A DNA stretch of 19,124 nucleotides, taken from a virus (Duplodnaviria; Heunggongvirae; Uroviricota; Caudoviricetes). The stretch lies in the IMG/VR virus record IMGVR_UViG_2695420427_000009; one strand, written 5' to 3'. The translations under genes were made by a program, and so were the position numbers. Shown piece by piece: positions 106 to 15,315 of this stretch. The notes below the pieces were generated by a model. That model had not been told where the DNA came from. It saw only the letters and a program-made list of their open reading frames with translations, and ran no database searches. How positions within the stretch are numbered: the stretch's first letter is position 1; each line of letters opens with the position of its first letter.

Positions 106-2001
106 ATGAGCAAAGTAAAAATCGGTGAATTAATAAACTCACTTGTTAGCGATGTTGAGTCAATAGATAACTCTGACCGTCCTCAAGGGGAGAAAACAAA
201 AAAAATAAAGGCTGTTGCATTAAAATTTAAAAATGCATTATTTAATGACAAGCGAAAGTTTAGGGGGAAAGGATTAGAAAAAAGAATTACAGCCAACACA
301 TTCAATGCCTATATGAGCAGGGCCAGAAAACGGTTTGATGATAAACTTCATCATAGCTTTGAAAAAAATATACATCGCCTATCTGAAAAGTATCCTTTAT
401 ATAATGAGGAGCTATTGTCATGGCTTTCTCTACCTGCTGCCGATATTCGCCAGAGAATGTCAGCTTTACAGGCAAAATTAAAATTAATTCTCCCTCTATC
501 AGAAGATTTATCTAATATCAGAATTGGCGATAACAAAAGTCATAATAAGTTATTGAAATTATCAAATAAATATAAAGAGTGGCAATTCGCCATTTCTGAT
601 TTAACTAGCGATAACTGGAAAGATAAGCGCGATTATTTATATAAATTACTACAGCAAGGATCTGCCTTACTTGAGGAGTTGAATCAGCTAAAAGTTAACC
701 ATGAGATTCTCTATCATCTTCAACTAAGCCCTGCCGAACGTGCATCTATCCAGCAACGATGGGCGGACGTTCTGCACAATAAGAAACGTAACGTGGTGGT
801 CATTGATTACCCTAAATATATGCAAGCTATTTACGATATTATAAATAGCCCTGCTACATTAAATAATCTAAACACTCGTTCAGGTATGGCTCCTTTGGCA
901 TTTGCACTTGCTGCATTGTCAGGAAGACGAATGATTGAGATTATGTATCAAGGTACATTTACTGTTTCTGGTAAGTATACCGTTGATTTTTTAGGCCAAG
1001 CTAAAAAAAGAACTTCTGATGATATAACCAGAAAAATATATACATTATGCGAAGCAAAAACATTTGTTTATTTAATAAATGTACTTCGCTCATGCCCAGC
1101 AGCATCTGATTTTGATGATGTCGTTAAAGGTTATGGAGATAACGACACACGCTCTGAAAACGGACGTATTAATGCCATATTAGCAAAGGCTTTTAACCCG
1201 TGGGTTAAATCATTTTTCAAAGATGACCGCCGTGTTTATAAAGATAGTCGTGCTATTTATGCCCGTATTGCGTATGAAATGTTTTTCCGCGTAGATCCTC
1301 GTTGGAAAAACGTAGATGAAGATGTTTTCTTTATGGAAATTTTAGGCCATGACGATGAAAACACTCAATTACACTATAAGCAATTCAAGCTGGCCAACTT
1401 CTCAAAGACATGGAGGCCAAATACTGGAAACGAAAATACCAGGCTGGAAGCATTGCAGCAGCTTGATGACGAAATGCCTGGATTCGCCAGAGGAGATGCC
1501 GGGGTTCGTCTGCATAACACAGTTAAGCAGCTGGTAGAGCAGGACCCCTCTATAAAAATCACGAACAGCACTCTAAGAGCGTTCAAATTTAGCCCAACAA
1601 TGATTAGTCGATACCTGGAATTTGCTGCTGATGCTCTGGGGCAATTTGTTGGCGAAAACGGACAATGGCAACTGAAAATAGATACTCCAGAAATCGTTAT
1701 GCCTGACGAAGAAGAACTGGAAGCAATACCTGAACTGGCGGATGAATTATCAGAGGATGACGATCTGGATGACGACGAAATTGAGATAGAGGAAGAGGAA
1801 GAGGAAGATAGCGTAGAAGAACAGCAACCGCCTGCACCTTCTTCGCCTGTATCTAAGCCGGTATTTAAGCCGGTGAGAAATATTGGTGATGGCTCATACG
1901 TTGTTGAGTTTCATTATAATGGCCAGAATTATGCGTGGTCCGGCAGTGCAAACAGCCCCATGTCAGCAATGCAGTTAGCATGGCTGACATATTTCGGTTA
2001 A
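106..2001 (+). CDS. telN: Protelomerase (telomere resolvase) TelN, 631 aa
   Basis: Long ORF preceded by RBS caggagagg; length and sequence strongly resemble N15 TelN as I recall it; acidic DE-rich C-terminal region typical of this family. Confidence 0.9.
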   Translation: MSKVKIGELINSLVSDVESIDNSDRPQGEKTKKIKAVALKFKNALFNDKRKFRGKGLEKRITANTFNAYMSRARKRFDDKLHHSFEKNIHRLSEKYPLYNEELLSWLSLPAADIRQRMSALQAKLKLILPLSEDLSNIRIGDNKSHNKLLKLSNKYKEWQFAISDLTSDNWKDKRDYLYKLLQQGSALLEELNQLKVNHEILYHLQLSPAERASIQQRWADVLHNKKRNVVVIDYPKYMQAIYDIINSPATLNNLNTRSGMAPLAFALAALSGRRMIEIMYQGTFTVSGKYTVDFLGQAKKRTSDDITRKIYTLCEAKTFVYLINVLRSCPAASDFDDVVKGYGDNDTRSENGRINAILAKAFNPWVKSFFKDDRRVYKDSRAIYARIAYEMFFRVDPRWKNVDEDVFFMEILGHDDENTQLHYKQFKLANFSKTWRPNTGNENTRLEALQQLDDEMPGFARGDAGVRLHNTVKQLVEQDPSIKITNSTLRAFKFSPTMISRYLEFAADALGQFVGENGQWQLKIDTPEIVMPDEEELEAIPELADELSEDDDLDDDEIEIEEEEEEDSVEEQQPPAPSSPVSKPVFKPVRNIGDGSYVVEFHYNGQNYAWSGSANSPMSAMQLAWLTYFG

Positions 2002-2012
2002 AGCATACAGTA

Positions 2013-2036
2013 AAGGCACCGAATTAACGGTGCCTT
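2013..2036. terminator. Hairpin between convergent telN and ant operon (AAGGCACCG-aattaa-CGGTGCCTT), probable bidirectional terminator
   Basis: Perfect 9-bp stem with 6-nt loop, 12 nt after the telN stop, followed by a U/G-rich tract gttgtgtg; sits between convergent genes. Confidence 0.4.
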
Positions 2037-2172
2037 GTTGTGTGACCTACCTCGCCTGCCCCCTGCAAAGGGCAGAAGTAACGGAGGAAACGCGGCTGCA
2101 ACCACAGACATCACCGCCCCGACTGCGAGGCTTCCCTTCTCTAAGAAGGGCATAAATTCGGGCTGGTCAACC

Positions 2173-2955
2173 CTATTTATTGGTGATTTCTGCTGGCTTT
2201 AGCTGCGCGGATAACTGCTCAAGTTTTTGAACTGCCAGTTCAAAATGCGCGGGTAACGCCTTTTCCAGATCAGAGTTAATATCGGTGATGGGTAAATCAC
2301 CACACGACATACTCCGCCTACCCCCACGAACAACATCACGCAACAACTCTCGTTCATACGTGCGCATGTTCCCCAATGCCGACTCAGCAGCCGTCAAAAT
2401 CCGGCGCAGTTCTGCCGTAATTGCTGGCAAATCATCAACCGTTATGGGGTTCGGGGATGGATTACGACACGCCCGACGCAAAGCTAACCATACACCGCTA
2501 ATCCAGGCATTTCGGTACTGAAAACTTTGTGCTATATCGTTAATCAGCCCTCGCAGATACTCTTTCTGCCTCCAGTTCAACGGCTCCGCTGCTCGCATTG
2601 GCTCAGGCTCGATGTAAACGTACTCTCCATTTTTGCGAATAGAGGGCAAGACTTCGTTCGTTACCCATTTGCGAAACCGCCAAGCTGTTGTGCCTTGCTT
2701 CACCGCGTCACGGCAGCGGAGGATCAGGGTGTATAGACCTGACTCTGAAATAATATTTAGCTTTTGCTCTCCGCCAGGGGTGTAACTTAAAGTTACACCC
2801 TTTTCATCCTCATCCAGAGACATTAGCGCCTTCCGGGAATTAACGAGTCTTAAAGCATCACATACATCCTTAGCCACAAACCACGGCTCACCGTTAATCA
2901 TCACTACACGAACCTGATGCTCTTCCTGAAAGGAAAAGACTGCTAACGCGCTCAT
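2173..2955 (-). CDS. BRO-N domain protein, antirepressor-like (260 aa)
   Basis: N-terminus FSFQEEHQVRVVMINGEPWFVAKDVCDALRL...EKGV...GGEQKLNIISESGLYTLIL...WVTNEVLPSIRKNG is a typical BRO-N / P22 Ant N-terminal-like domain; start overlaps the stop of the upstream ORF (operon). Confidence 0.75.
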   Translation of the reverse strand: MSALAVFSFQEEHQVRVVMINGEPWFVAKDVCDALRLVNSRKALMSLDEDEKGVTLSYTPGGEQKLNIISESGLYTLILRCRDAVKQGTTAWRFRKWVTNEVLPSIRKNGEYVYIEPEPMRAAEPLNWRQKEYLRGLINDIAQSFQYRNAWISGVWLALRRACRNPSPNPITVDDLPAITAELRRILTAAESALGNMRTYERELLRDVVRGGRRSMSCGDLPITDINSDLEKALPAHFELAVQKLEQLSAQLKPAEITNK

Positions 2956-3185
2956 TCAGCCTCCTTATCGCGCAGCAAGTGCGACGAGAGAGACGCAGAA
3001 TATCCCTGTGCTTCATGCGTTAACTCACACGCAATCTGCAGAAGTTTTCCAGCCTCTGAGAGGTAAATCGACGCCTCACAACTGGAGACTGTCCGATGGG
3101 CTGATGATACGAGCGCATAGACCTGAGCCAGACGTTCATCCAACGATTCCAGCAGGCCAACAGTGTTCATTTTTACCTGATTCAT
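2952..3185 (-). CDS. Hypothetical protein, 77 aa, middle gene of ant operon
   Basis: ORF translationally coupled at both ends (its ATG overlaps the stop of the Icd-like ORF; its stop overlaps the start of the BRO-N ORF); no recognisable motif. Confidence 0.5.
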   Translation of the reverse strand: MNQVKMNTVGLLESLDERLAQVYALVSSAHRTVSSCEASIYLSEAGKLLQIACELTHEAQGYSASLSSHLLRDKEAE

Positions 3186-3346
3186 GCAGCCACCTCGCGC
3201 ACCGGAATACGGGCAGACAATACCAGGACAAACCGGCTGGCGAACTGGCGACGAGCTTCCCGTTCAGATGACGCGATAGTGGAAAGATGATGAATGTGGG
3301 ACTTTTTGTCTGTGCGAACGACTGCCGCAAATTTGAATTTGAACAT
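3182..3346 (-). CDS. Icd-like small protein (54 aa), candidate cell-division inhibitor
   Basis: Hand-translated ORF MFKFKFAAVVRTDKKSHIHHLSTIASSEREARRQFASRFVLVLSARIPVREVAA, below the ORF-track length cutoff; GGAG RBS 9 nt upstream; stop overlaps ATG of next gene (ATGA); the F.F.AV.R...EREARR...F.L...AR.PV pattern matches my recollection of P1 Icd-like proteins. Confidence 0.5.
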   Translation of the reverse strand: MFKFKFAAVVRTDKKSHIHHLSTIASSEREARRQFASRFVLVLSARIPVREVAA

Positions 3347-3512
3347 GGTATGCACTCCGTTTTATTGGTCGTGCTACCACCAGAGTTGCGAATCTCTTTA
3401 TTGGTGGTAGCCCAGGCGGGGTTCGCAATACCGGTAAACGAAGAAACCGGCCCGACCGAAGTCAGCCCCACCTGAGCCACCATAATTCGGATATGCGCAG
3501 GTCTATACACAC

Positions 3513-3589
3513 AAAAAAACACGCTGGCGCGTGTTGTGCGCTTCGTTTTGCCAGGATTGCGAAGTCCCGACTGCGGGATTTACCGCAGC
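3513..3589 (-). ncRNA. Candidate c4/CA-like small regulatory RNA upstream of the Icd-like / antirepressor operon (~77 nt)
   Basis: Minus strand: promoter-like TTGACG-N18-TAAAGT, then a short transcript with three hairpins (CTGCGG-uaaauc-CCGCAG; CUUCG with a 14-nt loop; CACGC-gcca-GCGTG) ending in a U7 run, a canonical intrinsic terminator; loop sequence UUCGCAAU is complementary to AUUGCGAA in the downstream mRNA leader. Boundaries approximate. Confidence 0.4.
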
Positions 3590-3595
3590 GAGGTG

Positions 3596-3625
3596 ACTTT
3601 ACCTCCAAAACGACGCACACGTCAA
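3596..3625 (-). promoter_or_regulatory. Putative sigma70 promoter of the small RNA / ant operon (-35 TTGACG, -10 TAAAGT, 18-bp spacer)
   Basis: Read by eye on the minus strand; hexamer matches 5/6 and 4/6. Confidence 0.3.
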
Positions 3626-3645
3626 TAATTTGCAAAGACATTTTA

Positions 3646-3665
3646 CCCCGTGACCAGTCACGGGG
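3646..3665. repeat. Perfect 20-bp palindrome CCCCGTGAC-ca-GTCACGGGG (copy 1 of palindrome family B)
   Basis: 9-bp perfect arms, 2-bp centre; lies between the lipoprotein gene stop and the ant-operon promoter; core GTGAC-NN-GTCAC recurs at 8917 and 14851. Confidence 0.6.
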
Positions 3666-3726
3666 ACAGGTGTTTTTATAGTTTGCTTGAACAAACGATC
3701 AGAACATGAACAATGTTATTGTTCCG

Positions 3727-4539
3727 TTATAAGAAAGCCTCACGCGAACGGAACACCCACTCTAGCTGTACTGGATAAATTTCTCCCGTTTTAATATTTA
3801 TTAGGCGCGCGGCTAATAACTCACCCATAAAAACCTGAGTTTTATGGCTCATATCTGACGGGTTAAAAATAGTAGGTGATGTTATATCAATATGATTACT
3901 GCTTAACCCATTTATCTTTGCTAAATATTCAATTCTAAGGTCTTTTACATTAACATCTTTTGGTATTTGTCCTTTTATATCAATATCTGCCCATATTGTT
4001 TCAGGGTTCCCTTCATTTATTTGTGTACTACCAAAGATAATTTCGGCACCTAAAGTATTTAACACTTCTACATCAGCAGATATTCCAAAAGCATTAGCAC
4101 CAACATAGCTTCCATGCTTTGTTATTTCAGAGGAATCGACATGAAAACCATACCATCCAGACATATCTCGAGATGTTATCACGCTATCACTACCGCTATT
4201 CTCAACAAAATCACGGTTAAGATATGTTCCTGAGTATGTGATACTTCTAGGGATAGACAAACCTTGAGATGTTAAAACGTTGTTGTATGGCGCGTATGTT
4301 AATGAGTGAACGACATATCCACGCCATGAACCATCATCTATCTTTGATGCAATAATTCTATTAAATTCCTTACCTGTGAGTATTTTGCTGCTAAAATCAC
4401 CAACAGAGTTGATAGGTACTCTTTTTTCTTTTTCGAATTTATACTCAACGTCCGTTGATGCCTTATTATCATATTGATAAGTGCATCCAGATAATAACAA
4501 GATAGAGAGTAATAAAGCTGTTGTTTTTTTGTTACGCAT
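3727..4539 (-). CDS. Lipoprotein of unknown function (270 aa), AT-rich moron
   Basis: N-terminus MRNKKTTALLLSILLLSGC is a signal peptide with lipobox LSGC; mature part is Ser/Thr/Gly/Tyr-rich; the gene is visibly more AT-rich than its flanks. Confidence 0.8.
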   Translation of the reverse strand: MRNKKTTALLLSILLLSGCTYQYDNKASTDVEYKFEKEKRVPINSVGDFSSKILTGKEFNRIIASKIDDGSWRGYVVHSLTYAPYNNVLTSQGLSIPRSITYSGTYLNRDFVENSGSDSVITSRDMSGWYGFHVDSSEITKHGSYVGANAFGISADVEVLNTLGAEIIFGSTQINEGNPETIWADIDIKGQIPKDVNVKDLRIEYLAKINGLSSNHIDITSPTIFNPSDMSHKTQVFMGELLAARLINIKTGEIYPVQLEWVFRSREAFL

Positions 4540-15054: not shown

Positions 15055-15074
15055 CCCTGTAATTTTATACAGTA
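15055..15074. promoter_or_regulatory. LexA (SOS) box CCCTGTAATTTTATACAGTA
   Basis: CTGT-N8-ACAG with AT-rich spacer and 3-prime TA; the only such site in the window; 23 bp upstream of the 15097 ORF. Confidence 0.6.
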
Positions 15075-15096: not shown

Positions 15097-15315
15097 ATGG
15101 TATTAGATTCAATGACTGAAGCACCTGTATCAACTCTTGAAGAACTCGGATCAAACCTAAAAGACATCGACGCCGTTTTGGATCTGGTTAGCGTTGCTCT
15201 GGCTTCTCCAGAAGCCAGCTTGCATCTTGGCGAGATTTCACGACTTGTTAGTATGTCGCGGGAGATTGCTCAGAATTGCCAACAAGTTATTGCTGTTGAG
15301 TGTTTACATCATTGA
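15097..15315 (+). CDS. Small protein (72 aa) under a LexA box, candidate SOS-inducible antirepressor (N15 AntC-like role)
   Basis: ORF directly downstream of the LexA box; no strong RBS (alternative start at 15112); functional call is inference from context. Confidence 0.45.
   Translation: MVLDSMTEAPVSTLEELGSNLKDIDAVLDLVSVALASPEASLHLGEISRLVSMSREIAQNCQQVIAVECLHH

Follow-up and report, generated by a model that had tools for sequence, protein, structure and literature searches.

On the minus strand of positions 2173-3625 of the window (the whole 19,124-nt stretch of DNA that was analysed), we identified a set of genes that very probably forms immA, the anti-immunity operon of a linear phage-plasmid of the N15 type, under the control of an IsrK-C4 RNA module. 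Sequence comparison placed the window as a whole among N15-like (Ravinvirus) linear phage-plasmids and showed the locus to be orthologous to N15 genes 32-30, while profile searches recovered a protelomerase and a RepA-like protein on either side of it. As in N15 immA, the gene order icd-antA-antB lies 3' of the RNA module and beside the protelomerase gene, and the corresponding three genes are labelled icd, AntA and AntB in phiKO2. Together with a profile match of the first product to Icd, these features uphold the overall interpretation given in an earlier note on this DNA, which had likened the arrangement to P1 c4-icd-ant and N15 immA. Directly established were the family memberships and folds of two RNAs, four complementarities between them and the mRNA leader together with their covariation, the coding status and homology of the genes, and the overlaps of their starts and stops. 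The module type is already known (Citron & Schuster 1990; Ravin 1999; Barquist 2013); in N15, immA contains the genes for Icd, AntA and AntB (PMC4488713), and N15 genes 30-32 have been termed an antirepressor operon, with AntA as an antirepressor (PMC2847241).

Covariance-model searches assigned positions 3487-3400 (minus strand; 88 nt) to the C4 family of antisense RNAs (Rfam RF01695), homologous to N15 CA RNA, P1 c4 and P4 CI, with a score of 82.3 bits (cutoff 45; E 3.6e-15) and a match spanning positions 1-87 of the 87 in the model. Both the minimum-energy and the centroid folds reproduced the consensus structure of the family (-48.1 kcal/mol, z -5.56; 0 of 200 shuffles were as good), a cloverleaf-like architecture in which a long closing stem surrounds two hairpins, and which presents one recognition segment (b') in a single-stranded loop and another (a') in a single-stranded junction. 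Also visible in the sequence was a tRNA-like CCA tail after the C4 stem, and from the annotated ends of P1 c4 the mature RNA is predicted to span 3481-3403. The c4 RNA of P1 and P7, a ~77-nt RNA active in trans, is reportedly excised by RNase P at its 5' end, a finding credited to Hartmann and colleagues in 1995. The N15 immunity determinant 'cA', a negative regulator, presumably lies in the C4 region. The earlier note had labelled this region as leader; it is instead a full-length C4 RNA, and the real targets in the leader (a2 and b2, below) had been overlooked.

Upstream of C4, a sigma-70-type, Pa-like promoter (TTGACG-18-TAAAGT; 3596-3625, minus strand) matches the consensus at 9 of 12 positions and represents the sole promoter-like site within 2000-3800; its -35 element is invariant in 8/8 aligned relatives, and its -10 element nearly so. 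Transcription is predicted to start near 3589, where the match to the IsrK model described below begins. The RNA encoded at 3589-3512 on the minus strand (76-78 nt) folds into three hairpins (-27.3 kcal/mol, z -2.1), its 3' end consisting of a 7-bp G+C stem followed by U7, which together form an intrinsic terminator at 3535-3513. The proposal of a promoter-like element followed by a structured RNA of ~77 nt with an intrinsic terminator was confirmed in each of its parts at the sequence level. Its designation as a c4 homolog did not hold: the C4 model gave no match in 3590-3513, even when the filters were relaxed and E-values up to 1 admitted, and the covariance-model check that had been suggested for this candidate instead succeeded for the neighbouring 3487-3400. 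The terminated RNA matched the IsrK family.

Specifically, the element at 3589-3514 (minus strand), comprising two hairpins, a linker and the terminator, matched the Rfam IsrK model (RF01394) over its full length with 52.8 bits, a narrow margin above the cutoff of 50; against c4-a1b1 (RF03163) it scored 24.8 bits (E 2.8e-4), below the cutoff of 46.7. Orthologous elements in relatives scored 55-76 bits against IsrK, and we regard the element as an IsrK-family or c4-a1b1-type RNA equivalent to P4 seqA. RNAs of the IsrK, c4-a1b1 and P4 seqA class carry a Rho-independent terminator with partial read-through and bind Hfq, and the terminator-like structure of that class is present at the end of the 3589-3514 element. 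In all related loci that are complete, an IsrK-type element immediately precedes C4, with a spacer of 26 nt in the window, and the IsrK-C4 tandem was also identified in N15, YDC107_1, phiKO2, PY54, NAR688, 020009, KpLi5, 48ST307, P4, a P2-like phage and three Stx/lambdoid phages.

From the C4 fold and a search for complementarity, we defined two recognition segments and four targets, all on the minus strand. Segment a', AUUGCGAA (3422-3429), occupies the single-stranded junction between C4 hairpin 2 and the long stem, and b', CUUCGUUU (3436-3443), lies in the 12-nt loop of hairpin 2. In the IsrK-family element, a1, UUCGCAAU (3556-3563), is found in the apical loop of hairpin 2 and can form 8 bp with a', while b1, AAACGAAG (3541-3548), in the single-stranded linker 5' of the terminator, can form 8 bp with b'. 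In the mRNA leader, a2 (UUCGCAA; 3386-3392) is presented in the loop of an AGAG/CUCU mini-hairpin and pairs with a' over 7 bp, and b2, AAACGGAG (3355-3362), pairs with b' over 8 bp, including one G-U. The icd Shine-Dalgarno sequence GGAG (3358-3355) lies inside b2, 8 nt 5' of the ATG, and b2 likewise overlaps the Shine-Dalgarno sequence in nearly all related loci. A complementarity previously noted between the loop UUCGCAAU and a downstream AUUGCGAA corresponds to the pairing of a1 with a' (3563-3556 with 3429-3422) and is real, the downstream site being located in the C4 junction and not, as had been thought, in the leader.

Taken alone, one 8-nt complementarity is weak, as ~0.25 such matches would arise by chance when a 76-nt RNA is compared with the 240 nt that follow, and the combined a' and b' duplex energies with the window's own targets were equalled by only 33-36 of 1000 shuffles (~2 sd). 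The real support for the pairings comes from covariation in relatives, not from complementarity within the window. Among 15 loci, duplexes of C4 with the cognate IsrK element had an energy of -24.6 kcal/mol versus -15.7 kcal/mol for non-cognate combinations, and those with the leader -22.4 versus -13.8 kcal/mol (permutation p 5e-5 in each case). Furthermore, a1, b1, a2 and b2 each co-vary separately (p ~5e-5) in a set of 23 non-redundant loci that includes N15, P1, P4 and Stx phages, from which KpLi5 was left out and in which a' takes 17 forms and b' 21. A pattern scan of viral contigs yielded 62 loci, 12 of which fold like C4; the others were discarded as chance or unrelated matches.

The three ORFs of 54, 77 and 260 aa that had been placed after the leader were found there on the minus strand, joined by ATGA overlaps and with a Bro-N domain in the last. 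The first, icd (3182-3346; ATG at 3346), encodes an Icd-like host cell division inhibitor that scored 67 bits against NCBIfam NF033153 (cutoff 25), with residues 2-49 aligned to profile positions 1-48; the same model gave 52.6 bits for P1 Icd, 66.9 for N15 Icd and 77 for the P4 ORF. The protein shares 94% of its residues with N15 Icd and is 100% identical to its counterparts in PhiR46_1 and YDC107_1. Given this profile match, 21 synonymous against 3 nonsynonymous codon differences from N15 and conservation in relatives, the ORF, which was absent from the ORF track and had been proposed to be Icd-like, is a real gene under purifying selection. The alignment to P1 Icd that had been suggested as a check was not obtained with BLASTP, which returned none at E<=100; kinship is visible at the profile and alignment level only, a five-sequence Icd alignment retaining 8 invariant columns and 36% identity to P1 over aligned columns.

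The second gene, antA (2952-3185), the start of which overlaps the icd stop, encodes a 77-aa antirepressor with 63% identity to N15 gp31 (E 1e-29) and with matches to phrog_6301 and phrog_10889 ('anti-repressor'); phiKO2 Gp28 is annotated as 'similar to antirepressor N15 AntA'. The third, antB (2173-2955), which in turn starts within the antA stop overlap, encodes a 260-aa BRO-N protein (an auxiliary antirepressor) that scored 77.8 bits against Bro-N PF02498 (gathering threshold 25.6; residues 14-104), is 74% identical to N15 gp30 (E 4e-151) and matches phrog_130 ('anti-repressor Ant'). A Pfam search of Icd and AntA identified no family above cutoff; its sole match, LtuB, was sub-threshold and disregarded. 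Inactivation of the CB prophage repressor by AntA is a function known only from N15 (PMC2847241, PMC4488713).

By analogy with homologous systems, these features can be assembled into a scheme that covers how C4 would be processed and act in trans, translational repression, polarity and the contribution of the IsrK element. Transcription would initiate near 3589 from the sigma-70 promoter at 3625-3596, and most transcripts would end at the terminator at 3535-3513, giving an IsrK-family RNA of ~77 nt in which a1 is exposed in a loop and b1 in the linker. Read-through RNA would contain C4 (3487-3400), which, as for P1 c4, may be excised, with RNase P acting at the 5' end, as an antisense RNA of ~79 nt. 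Acting in trans, C4 would then pair through its exposed a' and b' with a2 and b2 of the leader. Because b2 covers the icd Shine-Dalgarno sequence, icd would go untranslated once C4 was bound, and because antA and antB start within ATGA overlaps, both would depend on upstream translation and remain off, leaving the prophage repressor unchallenged. The target copies a1 and b1 are of the same sense as a2 and b2, and hence the terminated RNA cannot pair with the leader and would bind C4 rather than the mRNA. It might serve as a decoy, thereby adjusting how much free C4 is available (compare the activation in trans of the Gifsy-1 antirepressor by IsrK), or as an upstream site at which C4 promotes termination on the nascent RNA, the role of P4 seqA. 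Work on Gifsy-1 reads the equivalent pairings otherwise, with IsrK remodelling the long transcript and not titrating a free antisense RNA (PMC4825925).

It is possible, though we put this forward tentatively, that control of the P4 type is dominant, in which case C4 would pair with a1/b1 and a2/b2 of the nascent RNA so that transcription would stop prematurely at the IsrK terminator, at Rho-dependent sites or at both, and occlusion of the ribosome-binding site would be secondary. P4 CI RNA works in this way via seqA and seqC (PMC4825925, PMC3632133). P4 also possesses an equivalent IsrK-C4 tandem with its complementarities, and in the window b1 is located immediately 5' of the terminator hairpin. 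N15 CA RNA, too, is said to have been described by Ravin and colleagues in 1999 as acting on transcription termination. However, the overlap of b2 with the Shine-Dalgarno sequence in nearly all loci would be expected under translational control, and no antiterminator competing with the 3535-3513 terminator was obvious in the predicted folds. An antiterminator that would be disrupted by C4 binding at b1 was considered and rejected, the only pairing possible being a 4-bp GCGC/GCGC interaction unused in those folds. In P1, a transcriptional effect follows the translational block through Rho polarity, and models based on translational block and on termination are therefore not exclusive.

Positive control of the Gifsy-1 type, whereby the long transcript would be held translationally inactive by pairing of a1/b1 with a'/b' in cis until opened by IsrK in trans, switching on icd-antA-antB with no need for free C4, appears improbable as the main function. 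In that system, IsrK in trans raised anrP translation ~140-fold and compensatory mutations were obtained at the IsrK/'orf45' pairing (PMC4825925); this pairing aligns to that of a1/b1 with a'/b', and equivalent complementarities are present in the window. Conversely, icd in the window has its own Shine-Dalgarno sequence beneath b2, which co-varies with b' as a P1-type repression target and would be unexplained by pure activation. Moreover, IsrK and C4 form separate domains in the fold predicted for the precursor, Ravinvirus loci carry icd and not an ORF across C4, and C4-like transcripts are regarded as primary repressors (Barquist 2013, PMC3632133). Finally, the view that the terminated ~77-nt RNA (3589-3513) is itself a c4-like antisense repressor, with its loop pairing with the leader to control icd-ant, can be dismissed as exceedingly improbable despite the promoter, three hairpins, U7 terminator and downstream complementarity on which it drew, for it is the adjacent RNA that matches the C4 model, the complementary site falls within that C4 RNA and not in the mRNA leader, UUCGCAAU and UUCGCAA, like AAACGAAG and AAACGGAG, are of the same sense and so offer no pairing with the icd ribosome-binding region, and P1 annotates the equivalent upstream sites (a1, b1) as targets and not as the repressor.

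Folding and covariation also revealed an alternative helix at 3373-3411 (minus strand), in which the C4 3' strand GCUACCACC pairs with the leader segment GGUGGUAGC (3381-3373) and a2 is placed in the apical loop. This is the 10-bp stem-loop that had been assigned to the leader; it does fold (-17.6 kcal/mol, z -5.3) and is conserved, but the 3' strand of the long stem of C4 doubles as its 5' arm, and the two folds are consequently mutually exclusive. Compensatory changes accompany its conservation (15 arm types, p 5e-5), and the helix is retained in N15-like, P1, P4, lambdoid and uncultured-virus loci. As the favoured fold of the intact precursor it was rejected, being 2.4-13 kcal/mol worse; for the intact window precursor it lies 10.2 kcal/mol above the minimum-energy fold. 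In the window, the leader segment GGUGGUAGC can otherwise sequester the icd start region. Separately, a U-rich run resembling a conditional terminator was observed 3' of the helix in several lambdoid, P2-like and P4 loci. We consider it doubtful that the 3411-3373 stem-loop represents a functional, family-wide cis switch, of which no earlier description was found in the accessible literature; if true, the helix could link the folding or processing of C4 to how the target is presented, to termination or to translation of icd.

In addition to the RNA-controlled operon, the window was found to carry the second, LexA-controlled antirepressor that the earlier note had placed at 15097. The motif CTGT-N8-ACAG occurs once in the window, as the LexA box CTGTAATTTTATACAG (15057-15072, plus strand), and lies 5' of an ORF (15097-15315) for a 72-aa AntC-like small antirepressor; a LexA box likewise stands in front of the N15 homolog of this gene (39604-39807). 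The AntC-like protein shares a PHROG with AntA, and it is these shared profiles alone that relate the two, BLASTP between them giving E 0.19. This separate, SOS-controlled gene would offer a DNA-damage route to induction.

The closest known counterpart is N15 immA (Pa, CA RNA, icd-antA-antB; Ravin, Svarchevsky & Deho 1999), which resembles the present locus in replicon type, position adjacent to telN and gene order, with 79-81% DNA identity over the RNAs and icd. Both possess the IsrK-C4 tandem, a terminator that here matches the N15 annotation, and a separate small antirepressor gene with a LexA box. The two differ in their recognition segments, a' being AUUGCGAA here and GUUGAGAA in N15, and b' CUUCGUUU here and CUUCUUGU in N15, and all four targets change to match. 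Since both segments differ together with their targets, the two elements should be hetero-specific for anti-immunity control, as P1 and P7 are for theirs. Klebsiella phage NAR688 carries an identical b' segment, and a P2-like phage has an a' similar to the one here.

The P1/P7 immI locus (c4-icd-ant1/2; Citron & Schuster 1990) displays the same order of a1, b1, C4, a2, b2, icd and antirepressor, employs the same RNA family and likewise places b2 over the icd ribosome-binding site, the equivalent of b2 being annotated in the P1 record as 'repression of icd ant translation'; NF033153 recognises the Icd proteins of both. Differences from P1 include the lack of pairwise BLASTP similarity between its Icd and the 54-aa peptide, and its antirepressors, which are annotated Ant1/Ant2 where the 77-aa AntA and the BRO-N protein AntB are found here. 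In addition, the upstream element of P1 scores as c4-a1b1 and not as IsrK, and its promoter contains a C1 operator, none of which was recognised in the promoter described here. The P4 immunity region (seqA, CI RNA, seqC) shares an IsrK-type element, a C4-type RNA and the complementarities, followed by an Icd-like ORF that is 50% identical; IsrK corresponds to P4 seqA and C4 to P4 CI RNA, and similar systems are present in P1, P7 and N15 (PMC3632133). Contrary to the present locus, the RNA of P4 is the primary immunity factor; it does not control an antirepressor but blocks replication genes through premature termination, and the IsrK-C4 spacer is 107 nt, compared with about 25 nt here.

Gifsy-1 isrK-orf45-anrP (Hershko-Shalev et al. 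2016) also produces an IsrK RNA that ends at a terminator, read-through of which extends into an antirepressor operon, and its IsrK is complementary to a processed RNA of ~80 nt, STnc1160, which is situated downstream in the position of C4. The published mechanism differs, being one of activation of anrP by IsrK in trans, with the ~80-nt processed RNA located downstream of IsrK (PMC4825925). Related Stx-phage loci similarly comprise IsrK, C4 and ant; unlike the locus described here, the lambdoid loci are without icd, and an ORF (orf45; orf34 in VT2-Sakai) spans C4 and is coupled to ant.

The practical value of this analysis lies in correct annotation. In PhiR46_1, the closest deposited genome, the stretch is annotated merely as 'hypothetical protein', and protein-coding annotations cover the C4 RNA in N15 (gp32/cA), phiKO2 (Gp30), KpLi5 (an 'Icd-like' CDS) and VT2-Sakai (orf34). 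The biology otherwise adds nothing new to the P1/P4/N15 paradigm, to which the alternative helix represents a possible exception. Once both RNAs and their four pairing sites are recognised, it should become possible to predict which N15-like elements share anti-immunity specificity and which differ in it.

Scanning the whole window against Rfam yielded two matches above curated thresholds, both on the minus strand: an IsrK-type element at 3589-3514 (52.8 bits, cutoff 50) and a full-length C4 antisense RNA at 3487-3400 (82.3 bits, cutoff 45). An earlier note had described a structured, terminated transcript in this region, and we indeed find a three-hairpin RNA (3589-3512, minus strand) closing with a G+C stem and U7. 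Its designation as a c4-like small RNA is contradicted: given where Rfam places the two families, this RNA is the IsrK-type element. The C4 model gave no match to it even with permissive settings, and it scored below threshold (24.8 bits, E 2.8e-4) against the Rfam c4-a1b1 model, representing the a1/b1 targets of C4. The C4 homolog instead lies inside what had been taken for the leader, and its predicted fold (-48.1 kcal/mol, z -5.6) is identical to that of the family consensus. Comparison with the ends annotated for P1 c4 predicts a mature RNA spanning 3481-3403. The promoter-like element proposed earlier is found at 3625-3596 (minus strand; TTGACG-18-TAAAGT), the sole such site within 2000-3800, and its -35 is unchanged in 8/8 aligned relatives.

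Two exposed segments of C4 can pair with both flanking regions (all sites on the minus strand). Segment a' (AUUGCGAA, 3429-3422; P1 nomenclature), in the single-stranded junction, forms 8 bp with a1 (UUCGCAAU, 3563-3556) in the IsrK hairpin-2 loop and 7 bp with a2 (UUCGCAA, 3392-3386) in the loop of an AGAG/CUCU hairpin in the leader. Segment b' (CUUCGUUU, 3443-3436), in the loop of C4 hairpin 2, forms 8 bp with b1 (AAACGAAG, 3548-3541) in the IsrK linker and 8 bp, one of them G-U, with b2 (AAACGGAG, 3362-3355) in the leader; b2 includes the icd Shine-Dalgarno sequence GGAG, which precedes the ATG at 3346 by 8 nt. The complementarity of the terminated RNA's loop to a' had been recognized correctly, but a' belongs to the C4 junction rather than to the downstream leader. 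The order of elements is that annotated in P1 (a1, b1, c4, a2, b2, icd, ant), where the annotation reads 'repression of icd ant translation'. Since a1 and b1 are of like sense to a2 and b2, the IsrK element would be unable to bind the mRNA and would bind C4.

For the window alone, a'+b' duplex energies with the IsrK element and the leader were ~2 sd better than those of dinucleotide shuffles, with 33/1000 and 36/1000 shuffles, respectively, reaching the real values. This within-window evidence is modest, whereas the comparative evidence is decisive. Across 16 related loci, an IsrK or c4-a1b1 match occurs just upstream of C4 in every complete C4-bearing locus, and the recognition sequences vary widely while all four targets vary in step. 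In N15, for example, a' GUUGAGAA is matched by a1 UCUCAAC and a2 UUCUCAAC; the partners of its b' CUUCUUGU are b1 ACAAGAAG and b2 UACAAGA. Among 15 loci, cognate pairings were stronger than non-cognate ones for both the IsrK element (-24.6 vs -15.7 kcal/mol) and the leader (-22.4 vs -13.8 kcal/mol; permutation p 5e-5 in each case). After addition of C4-like loci from IMG/VR, where 12 of 62 pattern matches fold like C4, a1, b1, a2 and b2 each separately showed the cognate effect (23 non-redundant loci, 17 a' types, 21 b' types). The window shares its b' with Klebsiella phage NAR688, and its a' is unlike that of N15.

Downstream, the three ORFs reported earlier (54, 77 and 260 aa) are joined by ATGA overlaps, the last carrying a Bro-N domain. 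The unannotated 54-aa peptide scores 67 bits (cutoff 25) against the NCBIfam model 'host cell division inhibitor Icd-like', which also matches the Icd proteins of N15 and P1 and a P4 ORF. It is 94% identical to N15 Icd, and of the codons that differ between the two, 21 are synonymous and 3 nonsynonymous (22/27 substitutions at third positions), which marks it as a real gene. The suggested likeness to P1 Icd holds at the profile and alignment level only, direct BLASTP of the two proteins giving no alignment. The 77-aa and 260-aa proteins are 63% and 74% identical to N15 gp31 (AntA) and gp30 (AntB), respectively, and in phiKO2 the same trio is annotated icd, AntA (antirepressor) and AntB (auxiliary antirepressor).

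Regulation is very probably of the P1/N15 type, the best-supported model, with translational repression by C4 at its core; the earlier note had the architecture right but misassigned the RNA. Many transcripts from the promoter would stop at the terminator, giving the IsrK-type RNA, and read-through transcripts would give the C4-type RNA, whose 5' end is reportedly generated by RNase P in P1/P7. Acting in trans, C4 would pair with a2/b2 and hide the icd Shine-Dalgarno sequence, which would keep antA and antB silent via translational coupling and perhaps Rho polarity. In P1, Rho polarity contributes to silencing downstream of the translational block. In P4, CI RNA brings about premature termination by acting on seqA, the equivalent of IsrK (PMC3632133; PMC4825925), and in Gifsy-1 the short IsrK RNA activates the antirepressor in trans (PMC4825925). 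Both are compatible with a C4-binding element, which may serve here as a decoy or as a termination target.

The 10-bp stem-loop placed in the leader by the earlier note (3411-3373, minus strand) folds well but is unusual. Its 5' arm (GCUACCACC, 3411-3403) consists of the 3' strand of the long C4 stem together with its CC tail. The 3' arm (GGUGGUAGC, 3381-3373) lies in the leader, with a2 in the apical loop. Complementarity is kept by compensatory changes across the window and 22 other loci, as in P4 (GCUAUCGC and GCGAUAGC), phiKO2 (GGUCACCACC and GGUGGUGAUC) and Stx2c (CUCACCACC and GGUGGUGAG), and among 15 arm types the pairing energy was -14.5 kcal/mol for cognate and -10.2 kcal/mol for non-cognate pairs (p 5e-5). 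In the intact precursor the C4 fold is favoured over this helix by 2.4-13 kcal/mol; on these folding models, it would form only with the C4 5' arm absent or engaged elsewhere. In the window, this leader segment has an alternative partner in the icd start region (GUGC-A-UACCAU; z -3.0), and several loci of the lambdoid, P2-like and P4 types have a U-rich run after the 3' arm. We found no description of the helix in the literature outside the primary P1, P4 and N15 papers.

Public protein-coding annotations overlie the C4 RNA in several relatives: N15 gp32/'cA', phiKO2 Gp30, a KpLi5 'Icd-like' CDS and VT2-Sakai orf34 (comparison sequences L001 2748-3038, L004 1165-1341, L009 1123-1257 and L016 1514-1687). 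An equivalent ORF of 128 aa is present in the window (3136-3522, minus strand). In N15-like elements these ORFs are most likely artefacts produced by the AUG that is conserved within AAUUAUGG at the C4 5' end; VT2-Sakai orf34 occupies the position of Gifsy-1 orf45, for which translation has been reported (PMC4825925). In Escherichia phage P13771, the IsrK-C4 module is followed after ~0.9 kb by an sRNA-Xcc1 match (RF02221, 79.6 bits; L015 2467-2550), which overlaps a small 'antB2' CDS; an APSE phage preprint describes this family alongside C4 and IsrK.

Upstream, a perfect palindrome (CCCCGTGACTGGTCACGGGG, 3646-3665) lies ~20 nt from the immA promoter -35. Its core, GTGAC-TG-GTCAC, is kept in 7/8 relatives and no T-run follows it; it could shield immA from transcription of the repA operon upstream or serve as a site for protein binding. 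A 270-aa ORF (3727-4539, minus strand) lies between immA and the repA-side genes, a position that holds telocin toxin/immunity cassettes in Klebsiella telomere phages (PMC12042878). It has no family in Pfam, PHROG or NCBIfam, begins with a typical lipobox-containing lipoprotein signal peptide (MRNKKTTALLLSILLLSGC), and may encode cargo or a surface/exclusion lipoprotein.

The window also has genes for a protelomerase with four TelK/ResT Pfam domains (106-2001) and for a primase/origin-binding protein of 1331 aa, and is 98% identical to Escherichia phage PhiR46_1 over 86% of its length and 96% identical to YDC107_1 (filed under Ravinvirus in its record), both N15-like. The RNA region (3340-3640) is 100% identical to PhiR46_1; the immA region shares ~90% identity with YDC107_1 and 79-81% with the N15 stretch that carries genes 33-30, the antirepressor operon (PMC4488713; PMC2847241). 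YDC107_1 (CP025712.1) holds two opposite-oriented copies of the whole IsrK-C4-icd-antA-antB region (L003 ~33.0-34.7 kb, L011 ~39.0-40.5 kb) with identical RNA sequences, which may be a genuine duplication or may have arisen in assembling a linear plasmid with hairpin ends.

The proposal of two separate antirepressor circuits proved correct, and N15 is known to be organized in this way. The window's one LexA-box match (15057-15072) precedes a 72-aa ORF at 15097 (plus strand, to 15315) in the same PHROG as AntA, and N15 has a homolog (39604-39807), without annotation in its record, likewise behind a perfect LexA box. This fits N15 AntC, an SOS-controlled antirepressor (cited in PMC4488713). The window gene has only 76% identity to its PhiR46_1 counterpart, against 100% for immA, which makes the element a mosaic when compared with its nearest relative.

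The IsrK-C4 tandem was equated with P4 seqA/CI RNA by Barquist et al. (2013), who noted similar systems in P1, P7 and N15 (PMC3632133), and Hershko-Shalev et al. (2016; PMC4825925) later returned to the subject. Because the tandem is published and curated Rfam models exist for all three elements (C4, IsrK and c4-a1b1), the window locus is a further case of a known module. The immA locus is an ordinary, already understood regulatory module of an N15-like phage-plasmid, and its own a'/b' specificity is its sole distinguishing feature.
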